Shown piece after piece: positions 6,951 to 14,923 of a stretch of 42,322 nt of DNA (position 1 is the stretch's first letter; each line of letters begins with the position of its first letter). The notes beneath the pieces were generated by a model. The model saw only the letters and a program-made list of their open reading frames with translations, had not been told where the DNA came from and did not search any database. The DNA comes from a virus (taxonomy: Duplodnaviria > Heunggongvirae > Uroviricota > Caudoviricetes), in IMG/VR virus record IMGVR_UViG_2541047730_000004, one strand, 5' to 3'. The position numbers were made by a program, and so were the translations under genes.

Positions 6951-7674
6951 GTTTCGCTTTGTGCTCGTCCCAGCACGTTTTGCACCATGCCATTAAGCCA
7001 TCCGCATTTTGATTATTAGGGTAAAAACTGGTTCGTTTTCTGCGGACATTACAAATTGGGCACCACTTCATATGGCGTGTATTCTTTGGGCCATCGAGAC
7101 ACCTTGCACACCACTTAGTCAATCCATCTGGATTTTTTGACGATTTCCTGAATTTTCCATATGGAAGGGTTATTCTGCATCGCAAACACTGCTTGCGGGC
7201 ACTTGAAACTTCGTTAGCTGATTCTTCTTTTGACGGCGATACAGAAGGTATTCTTGCTGGCTCTGATACTGCCTGAGGTGCTTTTTTAGGTGACTGAGAC
7301 GATGTGTCATCACCAGGGAATCTTCCATGATATGCCGGACGCGTTGACACTCCAGGTGGAAGCTCTGCTGTAAATGGCTTTGGCTGAATCAGTTGCCTCT
7401 CTTTTGCTAACTCCTGCTGTTTATAATATGTCTGGATTACCGCACTATCATAAGCAGGAGGTGCGGAAATATTAGGCGCATTACCTCCAGTTTTTTGAAA
7501 CTGAGTAGAGGTGTGTTCTATCACCTGTGTACGATTAATCGTTATCTCCCCATCTTCGGTCTTTATCGTTTTGTTATGATTAACGACCGTACGATCAGAG
7601 ATCTTAGTCTTGTTCTGGTTGATAACGTAAATAATCACCGCAACCACACCAACAACTATCCAGAAAACTTCCAT
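6946..7674 (-). CDS. Membrane-anchored protein with tandem Cys-rich (zinc-ribbon-like) repeats; function unknown
   Basis: N-terminal transmembrane helix (VFWIVVGVVAVIIYVI), Pro/Ser-rich linker, then four CxxC pairs in two internal repeats (NPDGLTKWCARC / NADGLMAWCKTC). Confidence 0.55.
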   Translation of the reverse strand: MEVFWIVVGVVAVIIYVINQNKTKISDRTVVNHNKTIKTEDGEITINRTQVIEHTSTQFQKTGGNAPNISAPPAYDSAVIQTYYKQQELAKERQLIQPKPFTAELPPGVSTRPAYHGRFPGDDTSSQSPKKAPQAVSEPARIPSVSPSKEESANEVSSARKQCLRCRITLPYGKFRKSSKNPDGLTKWCARCLDGPKNTRHMKWCPICNVRRKRTSFYPNNQNADGLMAWCKTCWDEHKAKR

Positions 7675-8073: not shown

Positions 8074-8730
8074 ATGAACGCTCAACTCATCCCCGTATTC
8101 AACGGCACTATATCTAACGAAACAGCCCTACTTTGTAATGCCCGCGATCTGCACGCTTTTTTAGGTGTTAAAAAGGTGTTTGCAGCATGGATTACAAATC
8201 GCATATCAGAATACGAATTCATTGAAAATCAAGACTATATTTTGCTTTCCAATTTGGGAAAGCAAACATCTGGTAGAGGCGGCCACAACCGCAAAGAGTA
8301 CCACCTCACCCTTGATACAGCCAAAGAGCTGGCGATGGTCGAGCGTAACGAAAAAGGTCGCCAGGTGCGACGCTACTTCATTGAATGCGAGAAACGTTTA
8401 AGACAACAAGAAACAAAAGTGGAGAAGGTCTTGTCAGGCTTCATGCCCGCCATTATGGAGGCGATCAAGCTGGAAGACAAAAAAGAATACAGCGCCCCAC
8501 TGAAGCCCGGCTACCGTAGCCTGATTCATTCGCCGTCTGGTGTTCTCGGCCTGACGGAGAACTCACTGCTGATGAATTTGCTGAACCAGTTACAGGAAGA
8601 CGGGCATGACGTATCGGGCGCGGCGGCGGAACTGACCACCATGTTCTGCTACATCGTTGGTGTGAGTAAATGCCTGCGTGATATCCAGACGCACGCGGAG
8701 TACATCAACGACAAGGCAGGGTTCTTCTGA
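8074..8730 (+). CDS. Antirepressor, AntA/Bro-N-like N-terminal domain plus shared Ant C-terminal domain
   Basis: N-terminal region (DLHAFLGV...W...[12 protein letters not shown]...[14 protein letters not shown]...RRYFIECEK) is typical of phage antirepressor N-domains; the C-terminal ~75 aa are near-identical to the C-terminus of 9513..10451; RBS GGAGA upstream. Confidence 0.65.
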
Positions 8731-8752
8731 CGGGCGGCGGCACAGGGATGTG
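8498..8752. repeat. Left arm of ~255-bp inverted repeat (about 95% identical to 9489..9746)
   Basis: Direct comparison of the reverse complement: e.g. ggtggtcagttccgccgccgcgcccgatacgtcatgcccgtcttcctgtaactggttcag versus ggttgtcagctccgccgccgcgcccgatacatcatgcccgtcttcctgtaactggttcag. Confidence 0.85.
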
Positions 8753-8814: not shown

Positions 8815-9039
8815 ATGAGTTTACATGAGGGGGGAAGCATGGAACTGAACATCATCACATTAATGAAAGCGCTTATTGGCGGTGCAGGAAGTGGCTTTGC
8901 TCTTTCTGGCGGGCTGTCTATGATCATACCTACTTTCACAGTGACGACTGGCGTTGCCTACCTTTTTGCCATTACTGGCGGTCTGGCTATGGCAGGTACT
9001 TACATTTTAAAAAAAATGAGTTCCGGTAGTGCAGACTGA
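8815..9039 (+). CDS. Small glycine-zipper membrane protein (cargo; toxin/holin-like or bacteriocin-like)
   Basis: 74 aa, Gly/Ala-rich transmembrane segments (GGAGSGFALSGG, ITGGLAMAG). Lies in the segment bracketed by the inverted repeats. Alternative start at 8839. Confidence 0.45.
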   Translation: MSLHEGGSMELNIITLMKALIGGAGSGFALSGGLSMIIPTFTVTTGVAYLFAITGGLAMAGTYILKKMSSGSAD

Positions 9040-9376
9040 GATCGTACAAGAATCACATTGGTACAATCCACAGACCGCTCAGGAGCTGGCGATCTTTTAT
9101 TGTATCCTTTGCATTGTGTATATAGTAATCCACCTGATATGGGATTTTCTCTCAAAAGAGACTGGTAGGTTTTCTGTTGTTAACCTTCAGTACAAACTGA
9201 ATGAGGTATATTCATCAACCACATTCGCAACGAGTGGTTTTTTCCTCGTTATGTTATGCGACATGAATAACCCTCTTAGAACATCAGATGCGTTTATCAT
9301 ACCGCTTATCTTGGCAATGCTTACTGGATTCATGATATCAATATCCGCAATAGCGCCAAAAAAAGTTAACATTTAA
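9029..9376 (+). CDS. Small polytopic membrane protein (cargo; possible immunity/partner protein)
   Basis: 115 aa with about three hydrophobic helices; start overlaps the previous gene; intrinsic terminator directly downstream. Confidence 0.45.
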   Translation: MQTEIVQESHWYNPQTAQELAIFYCILCIVYIVIHLIWDFLSKETGRFSVVNLQYKLNEVYSSTTFATSGFFLVMLCDMNNPLRTSDAFIIPLILAMLTGFMISISAIAPKKVNI

Positions 9377-9398
9377 GCCCGCACTGCGGGCTTTTTTG
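9376..9398 (+). terminator. Rho-independent terminator
   Basis: GCCCGC-ACT-GCGGGC followed by TTTTTTG. Confidence 0.65.
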
Positions 9399-9433
9399 TG
9401 TCTGCGGATTCCCGCCCTGGCGGCGGTGGCATT

Positions 9434-9462
9434 CGTTAAAAACAAGGCCGCGAAAGCGGCCT
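9434..9462 (-). terminator. Rho-independent terminator downstream of ant
   Basis: GGCCGC-GAAA-GCGGCC hairpin followed on the minus strand by TTGTTTTTAAC; a perfect 12-bp palindrome GTGACATGTCAC (9463-9474) abuts it. Confidence 0.55.
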
Positions 9463-9488
9463 GTGACATGTCACGATAGTTCAGTTTT

Positions 9489-9746
9489 GCACATCCCTGT
9501 GCCGCCGTTCTGTCAGAAGAACCCTGCCTTGTCGTTGATGTACTCCGCGTGCGTCTGGATATCACGCAGGCATTTGCTCACACCAACGATGTAGCAGAAC
9601 ATGGTTGTCAGCTCCGCCGCCGCGCCCGATACATCATGCCCGTCTTCCTGTAACTGGTTCAGCAGATTCATCAGCAGTGAGTGCTCCGTCAGGCCGAGAA
9701 CACCAGACGGAGAATGAATCAGGCTGCGGTAGCCGGGCTTCAGCGG
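9489..9746. repeat. Right arm of ~255-bp inverted repeat (pairs with 8498..8752)
   Basis: See left arm; covers the 3' end of ant on the minus strand plus about 25 bp past its stop codon. Confidence 0.85.
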
Positions 9747-10451
9747 ATAACCATAACATTTTGTCTGTGTTTTAATTGCCTCACGAAGCGCATCTAACAT
9801 CTTGACTGCCACTTCATCATTCTCTGATGCAGATCCAGCAGGGAGATACTCCCCTTCAAGCGGAACCCGAGCAACAAGAGACAACGCTTCGGCGAATTGA
9901 TCTTCATCAATTTCTTTGTACGAACAGCCAAAATGAGATTTCAGTGACGACCACATGGTGATCATCGCCTTAGCCTGTTTTTCTTTTGGCAGAGACTGAC
10001 CGCGACTCATGACGAGTTGTTTAATGGCTTCCTGCTGTTCAGTGGTGATTTTACCCGGCAACGCCTTTTTAGCTTTGCGTGGGTTAACTACATGGCCTTT
10101 AGTCCAGTAATCGTAGAGCACATCGTCACACTCTTCCTGATACTGGATTACCTTGTCGCGGATTTCAGGGCGTACTTTGTTTGGACTGATGCTGTTCAAC
10201 CAAGCTGCCAATTTTCGTAAAGCCATACAAATCATGGCTTGCACCCCACCGGCAGAAGGTATGGTGATTTCCACCATACCCTTCGAGAAGCGTTGAGAAA
10301 TCTTCTTATGTTGAGATTTCCAGTCTAGCCCCATTCCCTCAACGATAGGTTTCATTGGGGTATACGGTTCACCGTTGTGATTGACAACATAAAGCTCTGC
10401 GCCGTGGAATGGCACGTTGATAGTAGATACCGCTGTTGCTATACTCGTCAT
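9513..10451 (-). CDS. Antirepressor (P22 Ant-like position and architecture)
   Basis: 312 aa directly downstream of an Arc-like RHH gene and divergent from a Mnt-like RHH gene (P22 immI layout); N-terminal domain differs from 8074..8730 but the C-terminal ~75 aa are shared. Confidence 0.65.
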   Translation of the reverse strand: MTSIATAVSTINVPFHGAELYVVNHNGEPYTPMKPIVEGMGLDWKSQHKKISQRFSKGMVEITIPSAGGVQAMICMALRKLAAWLNSISPNKVRPEIRDKVIQYQEECDDVLYDYWTKGHVVNPRKAKKALPGKITTEQQEAIKQLVMSRGQSLPKEKQAKAMITMWSSLKSHFGCSYKEIDEDQFAEALSLVARVPLEGEYLPAGSASENDEVAVKMLDALREAIKTQTKCYGYPLKPGYRSLIHSPSGVLGLTEHSLLMNLLNQLQEDGHDVSGAAAELTTMFCYIVGVSKCLRDIQTHAEYINDKAGFF

Positions 10452-10523
10452 GTCGTTAATTCCTATACGTAGTTTTACGATACTGAAGCCCTGACGGTCT
10501 GGCCACCGTTGGGCTTCGCTGTT

Positions 10524-10691
10524 TTATGCCACGCTATTCTTCTCACCAGTGAGTCCATACACTTTCCTCAGCTGATAGATAATCTCTGTATTGAACTTTC
10601 GGCATTCTTTTTCGCCATTTCTTTCAATAGCTAACTTCACATCGTCCGGAAAACGAACTCGTCGTTGACACATCTCTTTTGCTTTTTGCAT
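10524..10691 (-). CDS. Arc-like ribbon-helix-helix repressor
   Basis: MQKAKEMCQRRVRFPDDVKLAIERNGEKECRKFNTEIIYQLRKVY: beta-strand RVRFP followed by two helices, ~56 aa; AGGAGA RBS 6 nt before this ATG. The longer ORF to 10727 would run through the operator palindrome. Confidence 0.65.
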   Translation of the reverse strand: MQKAKEMCQRRVRFPDDVKLAIERNGEKECRKFNTEIIYQLRKVYGLTGEKNSVA

Positions 10692-10705
10692 TTCATATCT
10701 CCTTA

Positions 10706-10720
10706 GCCCCACGGTGGGGC
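10706..10720. promoter_or_regulatory. Operator palindrome GCCCCAC-G-GTGGGGC; first of three CAC(C/G)GTG elements
   Basis: Perfect 7-1-7 inverted repeat between divergent arc-like and mnt-like genes; related elements CACCGTG (10734-10740) and CACGGTG (10759-10765). Confidence 0.55.
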
Positions 10721-10811
10721 AAAACAATTGTCACACCGTGCGTCATTGATGTCAAGCACACGGTGAGGCATACTTCAATCATTGCAAGTAACTCAATATT
10801 TGGTGAAGAAC

Positions 10812-11243
10812 ATGAGCAGAGAAGATCCACAACTAAGGATCAGACTTCCCGTTGAAGTAAAAGAAAAAATAGAAATTTCTGCAAAAGCCAATAAGCGATC
10901 AATGAACGCTGAAATAGTACAACGTCTTGACACCAGCTTTCTGAAAGATATTCATGAAGATGACGTAATTTCTGCTTATGAAGCAAAAATTATTGCAAAC
11001 AATGCACGGCATGAAATATCAAATATTATTTTCAAAAGAACCTTTAATGAAATTAATAAGAAAATAACACTTGGACATACAAGTTTTTATATAAACCTTA
11101 ATGACCTTGAACTGGAATCACTTGCAGATAATGATTACCAGATCATCTTTGAAAAAACATTTAATAAGCTCAATGAACTAGGTTACATCATCTGTGAAAA
11201 CTCATGGGATGCAGATGGTTTTGGAATTGAAATACCTGAATAG
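10812..11243 (+). CDS. Mnt-like ribbon-helix-helix repressor with a long C-terminal extension
   Basis: PQLRIRLPVEVKEKIEISAKANKRSMNAEIVQRL is an Arc/Mnt-type RHH; divergent from arc-ant; the AT-rich C-terminal ~80 aa have no recognisable motif. Confidence 0.6.
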   Translation: MSREDPQLRIRLPVEVKEKIEISAKANKRSMNAEIVQRLDTSFLKDIHEDDVISAYEAKIIANNARHEISNIIFKRTFNEINKKITLGHTSFYINLNDLELESLADNDYQIIFEKTFNKLNELGYIICENSWDADGFGIEIPE

Positions 11244-11285
11244 GAAGAACAAAAGGCGTGTACATATTACACGTCTTTAATACAA

Positions 11286-11897
11286 TTGAAAAACGCCACA
11301 TTACTGATGTATGTTACAACAAGGAGCGATATTTTGAAAACCATATCTATATTAAAGGTTGCATTAGGCGTCGCTATTATTTTGACTCTCTCAATATTGT
11401 TTTATTTTTACCACAAAAAAAATGCTATTGCTCTTGATGGTCACGCGGCAAACTCATTTTTCTCAGAGTACATAGTGCCGCTATCAGGAAGCGGTATAAC
11501 AAATAAATATACTGACTATGACATCAAATATGGAATTGATGATGGGGAGACTATTGTATTACATGTAATCATTAAAAACCTAATGACAGTAAATAAAAAT
11601 ACAGACTTCAACGATAAAAATACAATACATCACAACAACAGCAAAACATTAATTTCTTATAGTAGCAACATCTATACGGATAAATACCTAAAATACATCT
11701 CAGAAGATACAATAAAAGCAACCAGCGAAAAGTTAAAAAACATATATTGTGCATCCGGCAGTTTTCACAAATTATCGCCGCAGGAGCGTTTATTCTACGA
11801 AGCAAGAAAACAACGTAAGTCAATAATATTACATTATTATGCTGATTCAGGGGAGTCACTCATATTTAATATTGGGGTTTCCCCTGAATCATGCTAA
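11286..11897 (+). CDS. AT-rich membrane-anchored protein at the P22 sieA-equivalent position (candidate superinfection-exclusion/defence cargo)
   Basis: Single N-terminal transmembrane helix (ILKVALGVAIILTLSILFYFY) then an Asn/Lys/Tyr-rich domain; strongly AT-rich; sits between the last internal-core gene and mnt, co-oriented with mnt. Start uncertain. Confidence 0.45.
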   Translation: MKNATLLMYVTTRSDILKTISILKVALGVAIILTLSILFYFYHKKNAIALDGHAANSFFSEYIVPLSGSGITNKYTDYDIKYGIDDGETIVLHVIIKNLMTVNKNTDFNDKNTIHHNNSKTLISYSSNIYTDKYLKYISEDTIKATSEKLKNIYCASGSFHKLSPQERLFYEARKQRKSIILHYYADSGESLIFNIGVSPESC

Positions 11898-11908
11898 AGG
11901 CGTTTAAC

Positions 11909-14900
11909 TCACCGCATCACCGGATCCACCTGGTTTATTAGTGGCGCAATCCAGAACAGGTTATTGCCTGGTATCAGAGTTCGGACATTATGCGCAATAC
12001 GATCACCGGCATCACCATTCAACACTCCTGCGGTCACATCAATGATGCTATCCGCAAGACCAAATGACGGTCCGAATAGAGATCCTACGAATCCACGACT
12101 GGCATACCTAGACTGTGTGCCAGTGCCAAATAAAGCCCCCAGCCCAACAGCACCACCAGTAGCCTTTTCAGCCATGTTGTTATATTCTATCAATGGCCCA
12201 AGAATACCGGATCTATCTATACCCTCAAGCACCAGCTTCTCTGGTGACCAGTCAACATTTTTCCCTTTCGATGCTTCTTTTAGCGCATAGACCAGTGAGC
12301 CAAGAGCAATCTGAAATGCAGTGCCATAATAAAATTGCGCAGTTCCTTCCTGTAACCCACCAAGTAGCGCACGGTTGTATGAAGCCGTTGTGAATGATTT
12401 AAACTGAAATATCGTTCGCCCCATTGGAGTACTCGCCCATAAAGGTGTGTCACCAATACCGGGGGTGATGATAGTGTTATTAACGTCTTTCAGAACCGCT
12501 GACTGGAATACTCCGGCAACGTACTGATCGTCCCATTTATCAAAGTTACCAATGTGCCATCCATCAATTACCTCACCATGTTTCTCGAACTCACTGCGAA
12601 TACGCGCAGCCATATTGTCGTTGATACCGAGTTTTGCCATGCGACGTGCAGAAAACGCACCGGACAAAATACCGTCTGACGTGAGCATTCCGTTCATGGA
12701 TTTGTTTATGTCATTAAATCGATCCATGAGTGTCAGCTTGCCGAAGGCATCAGTAATTCGCTCCATTCCTGCTTCGACTGCTGTTGTCCTGGAAGAACTG
12801 TCAACAAGATCACCAATTGCACGAGAACGTGAATGTAGTACAGCTTCCAATCCAATCCCCATCTTCAACATATCTTCTTTGCTGGCCTTAAATGCCGGTG
12901 ATTGGGATATCTGAGAAGCATAGCCTTTCATGGTGTTACGGAAACCATTAACCATAACCCCTCTGGCCAGATCTGGAATAGCTGATACTGTCATTCCACC
13001 GAGTTTGGTCGTGAAGTTCACATCCCGCAGAAAAGCGCCAGCACGAACAAAAAACGAAGACGGATCATCAGGCATCCCATATGTACCAACAAGACGATCG
13101 CGTAATGCTGTTATGTCTCTGAGATCATTTGCTCTTGATTTTGAAAGTCTGGACTGTTCTTTCCGTAATTCCTTTTCGTACTTTCGCATTAATGAATCGA
13201 GTTTACCCTGAGGAACAACTTCACCATTGCTCTCATAACGTGCTTTCAGATTTGCCACACTTTCGTCATATTTCGCCTTTATTTTTTCAGGCACTTCCCG
13301 TAACAGACTGTCATATTCGTCCTCAATTAATTGCAGACGCTCAGTCATAGTTCGTTTGCCAAATGTTCTCGTCAACTCAATTTCTGCTGCCGCTTCACGG
13401 ATATGACGTTGCAGCACGTAATTCACATCACTTTCAAGATAATCCCTGATAAGACTATCAGGAACATTTAATGTTCTTTCTTTCGTACTACCTGCGGCTT
13501 TTACAGAAAATACGCTGACAAAATCCTGTGGAACCTTAGCACCAGTAATTTTATTAATTACGATATCCGCTGCAATTTCAGCATCCTCAGGATCCAGTGT
13601 TTTATTTCCTCTCGACCACCAGTCAACCAAAATACGTCGAAATTTATCGCGTTCACTGATTATTTTTCCAACTTTATATATGCGTGGGAAATAGCTTGCC
13701 TGGCCTAATGCTTTCAGTTCTTCATCTGGCGGCAATAAACCAAGCTTTTGCATTTCAACTTTCACCCGATTTAATACAGTTCGCATCGCCTGCGCCGTTT
13801 CCTGAACAACAGGATTAGCATGCACATCACCGCTTCGCATAGCATTCCCAACCTGCTGACGAAATGAATCAAAACTCATGTCACCACCATCAGCTTTATA
13901 CTTTGCGTATGCCTGTTTATTTCCGACAACAACAGCAGCTTCTTCACGCTGCCATCCACGTGTACGGGTTTCTACAGCTACCGGTGTTTCAATCCCCCTT
14001 TCATTTCCTTTAAGGGTGAAATTATTTTCGGCTAACTCCAGCGTTGTTTTTCGCACCGTCTTGGACGGAGACTCCATTAACCTTGTCAAAGGAGTAAGAT
14101 AGCTCCCTGCTTTCCATGCAGCCTTTCCAACCCACCCACCGGAAACAGGGGTTAAATCATCCAGAGTCGCTGTATCAATTTTCATAGCACCAACACTACC
14201 ACCATCGGAAAGCGAAGCGGCAGCCCTGTCAGTCACTGATGTAATGCTCATATTATCAAGAGCATCAGCAACCTCACGTGTGGCTGCAGCCCGGACGGAT
14301 GGCGAAAGCGCAACACCAGCACTGGCAAACACGCCGCTCATCATCGCACCCGCTGCAACGTGAGCGGCACTTTCACCCCATGAGCGTGTTATTTGCTGAT
14401 TATTCAGTACAACCTCGCTTAATGCTGTACCGGCAGCACCAATCGCAATCTGTGAGCCAATACGCGCCAGTGCCCCTCCTTGAGCACCGGGAATAAACAT
14501 TGACGCAACAGTAACCGGATCCATTCCCGCAGCAATACTGGCAAGGGTTCCAACTACGCCAGCATCAGACAATAAACGTCTGTCTTCATTTTCATCATCT
14601 ATCTGCTGCTTAATCCACGCCGTTTCCTCTGGCGATCGGGAATCTGCAAATTTCGCCCCCCAGTATTCATAACCGTGCAACTCATTTTTATCAGCATATG
14701 GGTTATAACCCTCGACCGGTTCAAACTGTCTGGCTGGGCGGAAAAAACCAGACAGAATATTGTTCTGTCGCATTGCAGCCCCCCATACGGAAGGCTCAGG
14801 TGGCAATGGCTCAGGATTAGCCCCTTCCGGAAGGGCAACATCAAACCCAGTTTGTTCCGGCAAAACATTACCTGACGGGATCAGTCCGTTATTAAGATCT

Positions 14901-14923
14901 TCAGCTTGTGCATAAACTGGCAT
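11909..14923 (-). CDS. Internal virion (ejection/core) protein, T7 gp16-like position
   Basis: 1004 aa, last gene of the translationally coupled virion operon; start overlaps the upstream stop (TAATG). Confidence 0.6.
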   Translation of the reverse strand: MPVYAQAEDLNNGLIPSGNVLPEQTGFDVALPEGANPEPLPPEPSVWGAAMRQNNILSGFFRPARQFEPVEGYNPYADKNELHGYEYWGAKFADSRSPEETAWIKQQIDDENEDRRLLSDAGVVGTLASIAAGMDPVTVASMFIPGAQGGALARIGSQIAIGAAGTALSEVVLNNQQITRSWGESAAHVAAGAMMSGVFASAGVALSPSVRAAATREVADALDNMSITSVTDRAAASLSDGGSVGAMKIDTATLDDLTPVSGGWVGKAAWKAGSYLTPLTRLMESPSKTVRKTTLELAENNFTLKGNERGIETPVAVETRTRGWQREEAAVVVGNKQAYAKYKADGGDMSFDSFRQQVGNAMRSGDVHANPVVQETAQAMRTVLNRVKVEMQKLGLLPPDEELKALGQASYFPRIYKVGKIISERDKFRRILVDWWSRGNKTLDPEDAEIAADIVINKITGAKVPQDFVSVFSVKAAGSTKERTLNVPDSLIRDYLESDVNYVLQRHIREAAAEIELTRTFGKRTMTERLQLIEDEYDSLLREVPEKIKAKYDESVANLKARYESNGEVVPQGKLDSLMRKYEKELRKEQSRLSKSRANDLRDITALRDRLVGTYGMPDDPSSFFVRAGAFLRDVNFTTKLGGMTVSAIPDLARGVMVNGFRNTMKGYASQISQSPAFKASKEDMLKMGIGLEAVLHSRSRAIGDLVDSSSRTTAVEAGMERITDAFGKLTLMDRFNDINKSMNGMLTSDGILSGAFSARRMAKLGINDNMAARIRSEFEKHGEVIDGWHIGNFDKWDDQYVAGVFQSAVLKDVNNTIITPGIGDTPLWASTPMGRTIFQFKSFTTASYNRALLGGLQEGTAQFYYGTAFQIALGSLVYALKEASKGKNVDWSPEKLVLEGIDRSGILGPLIEYNNMAEKATGGAVGLGALFGTGTQSRYASRGFVGSLFGPSFGLADSIIDVTAGVLNGDAGDRIAHNVRTLIPGNNLFWIAPLINQVDPVMR

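Follow-up and report, generated by a model that had tools for sequence, protein, structure and literature searches.

The locus described here lies in a window of 42,322 nt (IMG/VR record IMGVR_UViG_2541047730_000004, a virus of the Caudoviricetes; all positions refer to this whole stretch of DNA), the source of which is an Escherichia coli prophage. Positions 9513-11897 hold a full immI-type module of the kind known from phage P22, made up of an antirepressor gene (ant), the antisense RNA sar, an Arc-like repressor gene, a divergent regulatory region and the gene for a Mnt homologue, here called Mnt-long, together with a downstream gene for a predicted exported protein of 187 amino acids (aa), ORF187 (Table 1). 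Read as the reverse complement, the gene order is that of P22, 16 / sieA / mnt / arc / ant, in agreement with the first-pass annotation of this DNA, which had placed the downstream gene at the sieA position. The elements described in that annotation were found at or near the coordinates it gave (open reading frame (ORF) list and motif positions), as was the AT-richness that it reported, with a G+C content of 30-33% over about 10900-11900 against 45-48% in the flanks. The segment 10692-11900 was 100% identical in strain AHB29 and was found at its full extent each time in 36 of 5426 complete E. coli genomes; the sole close isolated phage was TL-2011b (96.2% over 9400-12000).

Table 1. Positions of the features of the immI-type module, ORF187 and the adjoining ejection-protein gene in the window
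Feature	Position	Strand	Size or residues	Evidence and remarks
ant, antirepressor	9513-10451	-	312 aa	Pfam P22_AR_N (PF10547) 2.5e-45; PHROG 524/245 'anti-repressor Ant'
Predicted sar promoter	10417-10445	+		TTGATA-17 nt-TATACT, TG-extended; consensus scan, 10/12 matches
sar antisense RNA	10453-10520	+		Rfam RF00262, 45.2 bits (gathering 43), E 2.5e-7, full model 1-68
Arc-like ribbon-helix-helix repressor	10524-10691	-	55 aa	First gene of the ant operon; ORF listed as 10524-10727
Operator site 1	10705-10721			GCCCCAC-G-GTGGGGC; perfect 6-1-6 palindrome at 10707-10719; at the predicted ant promoter +1
Predicted ant promoter	10727-10755	-		-35 TTGACA 10755-10750, 17 nt, TG-extended -10 GACAAT 10732-10727; scan 10/12
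Operator site 2	10729-10745			TGTCACACCGTGCGTCA; inside the ant promoter spacer, where P22 has the arc operator
Putative mnt promoter	10746-10774	+		-35 TTGATG 10746-10751, 17 nt, -10 CATACT 10769-10774; read from the sequence
Operator site 3	10754-10770			AGCACACGGTGAGGCA; inside the spacer of the putative mnt promoter
Mnt-long	10812-11243	+	143 aa	ORF listed as 10782-11243; likely start ATG 10812, as given by PGAP in the 100% identical AHB29
Mnt-long ribbon-helix-helix domain	10812-10949		residues 1-46	
Mnt-long long helix	10974-11069		residues 55-86	
Mnt-long extra alpha/beta domain	11070-11240		residues 87-143	
Hairpin between mnt-long and ORF187	11252-11278	+		AAAGGCGTGTA / TACACGTCTTT; inverted repeat, no proper + strand T-run
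ORF187, exported protein	11334-11897	+	187 aa	ORF listed as 11286-11897; N-terminal membrane helix and periplasmic alpha/beta domain (predicted)
Large internal virion (ejection) protein	11909-14923	-	1004 aa	phrog_342 'internal virion protein'; convergent with ORF187

Each of the three proteins of the switch has a P22 counterpart. The Ant protein was 40% identical to P22 Ant over 217 aa (E 2e-38), and the Arc-like protein matched P22 Arc by BLASTP (33% over 40 aa, E 4e-5) and the PHROG 228 family 'Arc-like repressor' (3.4e-5); its likely start is ATG 10691, preceded by the Shine-Dalgarno sequence TAAGGAG, and its gene adjoins mnt-long in all the relatives. The sar RNA is complementary to the arc-ant junction and to the ant ribosome-binding site, and consists of two hairpins followed by a U-run (z = -2.84), with a terminator-like hairpin at 10496-10515; an Enterobacter relative (L002) also gave a sar match above the gathering score. 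The sequence predicted to serve as the sar promoter lies within the 5'-terminal part of ant, in antisense orientation, in the same place as the annotated P22 Psar; the terminator is likewise positioned as in P22. In listing the components, the first-pass annotation had recognized Mnt, Arc, Ant and the three operators, all of which were recovered, and had missed the sar RNA.

Mnt-long carries a ribbon-helix-helix domain (Pfam Arc, 1.1e-14), which hhalign aligned with P22 Mnt (97.35%, 46% identity over 41 aa, residues 1-41). Homology past residue 41 was not extended by hhalign, and the correspondence of the following helix was given by the span of a PHROG profile only: positions 13-96 of phrog_795 were matched by both P22 Mnt 1-82 and Mnt-long 1-84, so the helix at residues 55-86 of the AlphaFold2 (AF2) model is probably the Mnt tetramerisation helix. 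The protein thus consists of a complete P22-type Mnt to which an alpha/beta domain of about 57 aa has been added. The AF2 model had a mean predicted local distance difference test (pLDDT) score of 79.7, with a compact extra domain at pLDDT 82-92, for which nothing credible was retrieved from Pfam, NCBIfam or PADLOC. The excess of about 60 aa noted in the first-pass annotation was exact as to length (143 versus 83 aa), although residues ~50-84 of the tail align with P22 Mnt, leaving only the ~57 aa, which have no recognisable family, as additional sequence.

A long Mnt proved not to be peculiar to this locus, since it belongs to a large family found with an Arc-like gene and three operators in many unrelated prophages. 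The family comprised 262 clusters of 142-152 aa with 58-69% identity, from Citrobacter, Enterobacter, Salmonella, Yersinia (including Y. pestis), Proteus, Xenorhabdus and other hosts. The N-terminus MSREDPQLRIRLP was invariant in 32 Mnt-long sequences, and the extra domain also contained invariant residues (G88, F92, D98, L99, L101, T116, Y125, F137 and I141). The C-terminal domain was present in hundreds of clusters in bacterial genomes, one of them listed in 1637 contig-collection blocks, whereas among 50,697 phage records it occurred only in TL-2011b. In Enterobacter and Y. pestis, Mnt-long was located within the tail gene clusters of siphophages, accompanied by the Arc-like gene (55 aa) and by an antirepressor of Bro-N type, with convergent structural genes directly after it and no downstream membrane gene, indicating that the immI cassette is portable and that the antirepressor under its control varies. 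In TL-2011b, codon 9 of mnt-long has one extra G (GG to GGG, at ~7440-7445, equivalent to window ~10838), which frameshifts the ribbon-helix-helix domain, hence its annotation there as a 113-aa hypothetical protein; this G could be a sequencing error in a homopolymer, or the phage could truly be mnt-defective.

The divergent region between the arc-like and mnt-long genes (10692-10811) is exactly 120 bp long and, as reported in the first-pass annotation, holds three copies of CAC(C/G)GTG, at 10710, 10734 and 10759 (24 and 25 bp apart). The bare 7-mer was not enriched in the whole window (6 found versus 4.6 expected). The extended 11-mer CNCACSGTGNG occurred in the window only at these three sites (3 versus 0.21 expected), a number reached in none of 100 shuffles. 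Among 16 diverged relatives (Mnt 52-69% identical, at least 10 genera), 12 had the sites at -102 to -106, -78 and -53 from the Mnt start, and the remaining four had a changed central base in one or both outer sites; the placing of the sites was fixed over 17 diverged modules from other Enterobacterales. Site 1 (GCCCCACGGTGGGGC) matched the P22 mnt operator (GGTCCACGGTGGACC) at 11 of 15 bases and begins 6 nt past the ant -10 element, compared with 7 nt for the P22 mnt operator. Site 2 was nearly invariant in the 16 relatives, and site 3 was in most of them a perfect palindrome, CCCCAC(C/G)GTGGGG.

The layout of the predicted ant promoter parallels that of P22 Pant, and its -35 hexamer overlaps back to back with that of the putative mnt promoter, at the place of which the relatives have TTGAAG, 17 nt and CATAAT. 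Both the Arc-like protein and Mnt-long have the ribbon-helix-helix beta-strand pattern Q-x-R-x-R, which in the Arc-like proteins of the relatives takes the form Q-R-(K/R)-(V/I)-R. In the alignment, the Q/R/R residues of both proteins share columns with Q9/N11/R13 of P22 Arc and H6/N8/R10 of P22 Mnt, positions that contact bases in the known Arc and Mnt complexes. Since both proteins have this pattern and all the operators have one core, the two repressors probably recognise related half-sites. Covariation between variants of the Arc-like strand (QRRVR, QKKIR and QRKVR) and variants of the operators was sought, and was too sparse to assign sites.

Compared with P22 immI (mnt, Pmnt/Pant, Oarc, Omnt, arc, sar and ant; NC_002371), the module has all five components, arranged and oriented alike beside the last ejection-protein gene. 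In both, a CCAC(G/C)GTGG palindrome follows the ant -10 element at a distance of 6-7 nt, and the spacer of the ant promoter holds a second operator. The P22 immI type attributed to this locus in the first-pass annotation is supported by the counterparts of Mnt, Arc and Ant, by the sar RNA, by the gene order and by site 1, which resembles the mnt operator in both sequence and position. The differences are nonetheless several. P22 Mnt lacks the alpha/beta domain added in Mnt-long; P22 uses two unrelated operators, whereas here there are three of one sequence class, and site 2 has the CAC(C/G)GTG core instead of the TAGA-type half-sites of the P22 arc operator. Q-x-R-x-R in both proteins takes the place of the P22 residues H-N-R (Mnt) and Q-N-R (Arc), and the promoters have overlapping -35 elements and starts about 60 bp apart, while those of P22 are almost fully superimposed. 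The phage itself is a TL-2011b-type podophage with T7-like core proteins and is not P22-like. The immI module is thus a variant design of the known P22-type switch.

ORF187 (G+C content 32.6%) most likely begins at TTG 11334, 6 nt after the Shine-Dalgarno sequence AAGGAG, a start on which PGAP (in AHB29) and the TL-2011b annotation agree. A word-indexed protein search returned only copies that were >93% identical, whereas an exhaustive HMMER search recovered a small family of full-length homologues with 27-43% identity, from Providencia and Proteus where the source was named. These homologues have classical signal peptides or N-terminal anchors, and the family shares the motifs LSG..A..FF..Y.VP, YG, YC, YYD and SP.SC, with Y46, P49, Y62, I74, L134, Y138, C139, Y168, Y169, F178, P184 and C187 invariant. 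The invariant cysteines and the export signals fit a disulfide-bonded periplasmic domain. In the AF2 model (pLDDT 80; predicted template modelling score, pTM, 0.69) a single N-terminal helix (residues 2-28) is followed by an alpha/beta domain, whose sole structural neighbours were Pseudomonas aeruginosa PA3611 and the pilotin AspS; the family and this predicted fold replace the earlier view that the product belongs to no recognisable family. ORF187 corresponds to phrog_8033. Searches with it yielded nothing credible in Pfam, NCBIfam or PADLOC, no match at E <= 0.001 in the BFVD viral fold library, and TL-2011b as the only match among isolated phages. A PADLOC match to a ThsB TIR-like protein (E 0.0049, 15 bits) was taken as noise, and a weak repeated match of the family profile to iota-carbonic anhydrase in a PDB sequence search (per-domain E 2.8-9) was judged spurious. 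In one homologue (P0142, 264 aa) the C-terminus runs into sequence like the N-terminus of the ejection protein (…VEGYNPF…SPEET…), which suggests a rearranged or fused locus in that contig.

In every context retrieved (L035-L039 and L046-L049, with the convergent gene only partial, at the contig end, in L046 and L049) the ORF187-family gene was immediately convergent with an ejection gene encoding 937-1137 aa. Its neighbour on the other side varied and could be a gene for a secreted 175-aa protein, a 98-aa ORF, an ORF6N antirepressor, a terminase subunit or a 216-aa ORF. With a constant ejection neighbour and a changing other side, ORF187 is linked to the ejection gene and not to immI or Mnt, which sets aside its earlier treatment as a part of the Mnt module. 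The family genes were AT-rich relative to their neighbours in all the loci, and their products were 27-30% identical where the neighbouring ejection proteins were 42-73% identical. In E. coli, 36 of the 44 genomes with this ejection gene carried ORF187; in two others that were examined (L042 and L043, 5448-5975) the slot was occupied by WP_000451652.1, a 175-aa protein (phrog_21690, unknown function) with an N-terminal hydrophobic segment, adjoining an ejection gene that was 96-99% identical. The slot beside the ejection gene behaves like an exchangeable cassette site for membrane proteins. In Providencia (L035 5352-5879, - strand) a second secreted protein of 175 aa, with a signal peptide and no PHROG family, is encoded divergently from the ORF187 homologue; this protein and WP_000451652.1 were unrelated to ORF187 and to each other.

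ORF187 occupies the same slot as P22 SieA (phrog_7745), that of the first gene convergent with the last ejection gene, between the ejection gene and mnt, and the two also have in common an association with the inner membrane (predicted for ORF187), a presence in only some related prophages and a high divergence between types. Like sieA, the gene stands between the last ejection-protein gene and the tailspike region, on the opposite strand. The two proteins differ in architecture, SieA being a polytopic protein of 3-4 transmembrane segments that bears an FxRYPxEAxxFNK motif in the cytoplasm, and ORF187 having one N-terminal helix, a predicted periplasmic domain, two cysteines and no RYP. The topology and motif of SieA were described by Leavitt et al. 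2024 (PMC10883804), who also mapped SieA escape mutants to the ejection proteins gp16 and gp20. A relationship by descent was rejected, as the two belong to different PHROG families and the ORF187 family profile aligned with P22 SieA at a probability of only 0.3% (hhalign).

In its fold, the model of ORF187 follows the order of AspS and PA3611, alpha1-beta1-beta2-beta3-alpha2-alpha3-beta4-beta5-alpha4, and the cysteines of a putative disulfide, C139 at the end of helix 124-138 and C187 at the C-terminus, are located at positions corresponding to those that the conserved disulfide joins in those proteins (alpha2 and the C-terminal segment). These predicted fold counterparts (AspS, also GspS-beta or YghG, and PA3611; PDB 4ftf and 3npd; Dunstan et al. 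2013, PMC3542185) include a protein that binds the secretin S-domain, and E. coli carries the AspS-type system yghG-gsp. Unlike AspS, ORF187 has no lipobox, would be anchored by a transmembrane helix or secreted, contains a 29-aa Asn-rich insertion, and is located in a prophage beside ejection genes and not in a type II secretion system (T2SS) cluster.

These observations are best accommodated, in our tentative opinion, by two independent units, an immI-type antirepressor switch and a separately inherited accessory gene (moron), ORF187, that may encode an exclusion protein. In the switch, the ant promoter would drive arc-like and then ant. In a lysogen, Mnt-long, probably a tetramer through the helix at residues 55-86, would bind the site 1 palindrome at the start of the ant promoter and keep the antirepressor off, and would likely also bind site 3 in the spacer of its own promoter. 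After infection or derepression, the Arc-like protein would shut the ant promoter again at site 2, and the sar RNA would block ant translation. With Q-x-R-x-R in both proteins and one core in all the operators, the repressors would probably compete or cooperate on related sites, unlike those of P22.

The hairpin between mnt-long and ORF187 is at best a weak terminator. The ORF187 moron would probably be separately expressed, and its product would be inserted in or secreted across the inner membrane and would fold in the periplasm as a disulfide-stabilised PA3611/AspS-like domain. That ORF187 is an exported accessory protein expressed in lysogeny is much the safer reading, and a quite probable one. 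Superinfection exclusion, as proposed for this gene in the first-pass annotation, is plausible, given its position, export signals and rapid evolution. The product would most likely protect the lysogen by binding a periplasmic part of the incoming T7-gp14/15/16-type ejection conduit, and would then be a functional analogue of SieA, not a homologue. The SieA slot together with the escape mutants in ejection proteins, the predicted periplasmic location, the peptide-gripping fold class and the fast evolution make an injection block the single most likely function, to which we nevertheless give about one chance in three. Small exported proteins that block DNA entry at the injection apparatus or the receptor are familiar from other phages (T4 Sp and Imm, P1 Sim, HK97 gp15, T5 Llp and Cor). 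None of them was retrieved by the sequence or fold searches with ORF187, and any likeness would be functional only and is speculation.

A bolder form of this proposal would make the ORF187 family a new exclusion class, in which a disulfide-bonded protein of pilotin fold, tethered to the inner membrane or secreted, captures the incoming podophage conduit of T7-gp14/15/16 type as a pilotin grips the C-terminal peptide of a secretin, and Mnt-long a widespread three-operator variant of immI, with an added domain that links repressor tetramers or takes in a signal; taken as a whole, this is rather unlikely. Capture of the conduit would explain both the constant position of ORF187 against the ejection gene and its evolution at several times the rate of that gene.

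Several observations weigh against parts of the preferred account of two independent units. In the switch, the putative mnt promoter is weak, with 8 of 12 consensus matches, below the scan threshold; the Arc-like protein had no Pfam match at E < 0.1, which makes its support weaker; and repressors were matched to sites by analogy only, so that the opposite assignment could be argued, as the most invariant site is site 2, yet the invariant N-terminus is that of Mnt-long. For ORF187, sigma-70 scans upstream of the gene and of its homologues were no better than shuffle expectation, lysines follow the hydrophobic segment in the window protein and leave its topology ambiguous, and similarity at the sequence level was found neither to any known exclusion protein nor to E. 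coli YghG/AspS (hhalign, 0.67%). An ejection gene that was 99.3% identical adjoined an unrelated cassette, indicating no tight co-evolution, and the linkage itself could reflect simple vertical inheritance at a moron hot-spot.

The main rival for ORF187 is a host-directed function, in which the protein would be a lysogenic-conversion factor acting on a host envelope machine, binding the S-domain of a secretin (T2SS GspD, filamentous-phage or pilus) or another periplasmic partner and altering secretion, piliation or the envelope. The restriction of its structural neighbours to PA3611 and AspS, the secretin binding of AspS, the yghG-gsp system of E. coli and an AT-rich moron character typical of conversion genes all favour this function, but the missing lipobox implies that, unlike pilotins, the protein is not sent to the outer membrane, the sequence bears no similarity to YghG, the gene was always beside ejection genes and never near secretion genes, and its very rapid divergence fits an arms race better than a conserved host partner; we consider it improbable. 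Still less credible is the reading of ORF187 as spurious, or as an ORF in decay within AT-rich intergenic DNA, to which the low G+C content, the TTG start and the dearth of matches in Pfam, NCBIfam and isolated phages other than TL-2011b might have pointed. This reading was rejected on family conservation, given full-length homologues with common motifs and two invariant cysteines, and it is also at odds with the confident AF2 model, the strong Shine-Dalgarno sequence and an intact gene in 36 genomes, so that hardly any weight is left to it.

Mnt-long and ORF187 might also be imagined as one pair, either a toxin-antitoxin or abortive-infection system in which the C-terminal domain of a ribbon-helix-helix antitoxin neutralises a membrane toxin, or a regulator with a dedicated target. 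Each gene family was found without the other in all the contexts outside E. coli, and on this ground a toxin-antitoxin pair was rejected; the comparative data largely refute any such pairing, which is very unlikely. As to the extra domain of Mnt-long, our best guess is that it serves higher-order assembly or the input of a signal. As a possible alternative, which we regard as doubtful, the domain would sense or bind a partner (for instance Arc, Ant, a small molecule or a host factor), rendering the switch inducible, and would not be an aid to oligomerisation, although this is in keeping with a compact alpha/beta unit that comes after a segment already aligning with the whole of P22 Mnt, tetramerisation helix included, and that is conserved, with nine invariant residues from G88 to I141.

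Antirepressor switches of the immI type decide whether a prophage stays silent, and the portable cassette described here (a long Mnt, three related operators, a small Arc and sar) is carried by hundreds of prophages of the Enterobacterales, among them prophages of Yersinia pestis and of clinical Enterobacter, and is almost absent from isolated phages. It departs from the textbook case of P22 in operator logic and repressor architecture, and is a defined system in which to study how two ribbon-helix-helix repressors share one operator class. ORF187, for its part, offers a cheap and direct test of a new mechanism by which podophages with T7-like ejection proteins would be excluded, a group for which no prophage-encoded injection blocker turned up in the searches made here. 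Such exclusion genes matter for the host range of phage therapy in pathogenic E. coli and Proteeae; should exclusion by ORF187 prove negative, the locus would be an ordinary accessory-gene slot.

Upstream of the gene for the 1004-aa ejection protein are genes for an SLT-transglycosylase protein and a core protein of the T7 gp14 family. A 45-bp stretch from the 3' end of the gene for the ejection protein (window 11915-11959) occurs alone elsewhere, 100% identical and unannotated, mostly near 1.32-1.42 Mb or 3.2-3.4 Mb, and explains the low-coverage matches among the 80 matching genomes, 17 of which were listed, including ST131 strains; it may be left over from a prophage or mark a recombination boundary.

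On the other side of the module, the two arms of a 235-nt inverted repeat (8497-8731 and 9512-9746, 96% complementary) provide two antirepressors that otherwise differ with the same C-terminal domain of about 78 aa; one of these is of AntA type (8074-8730, + strand) and the other is the P22_AR_N-type Ant (9513-10451, - strand). The arms enclose a 780-bp segment with two small membrane ORFs (8815-9039 and 9029-9376) and back-to-back terminators (9375-9393 on the + strand and 9462-9445 on the - strand). This segment could be invertible by homologous recombination, or the ~78-aa domain could be a common module for repressor binding or oligomerisation. The two small hydrophobic ORFs belong to phrog_13406 and phrog_36716 (both of unknown function), and TL-2011b has at that position a YafO-family toxin gene and a 'transmembrane anchored protein', indicating that the region between the antirepressor genes is a variable accessory island.

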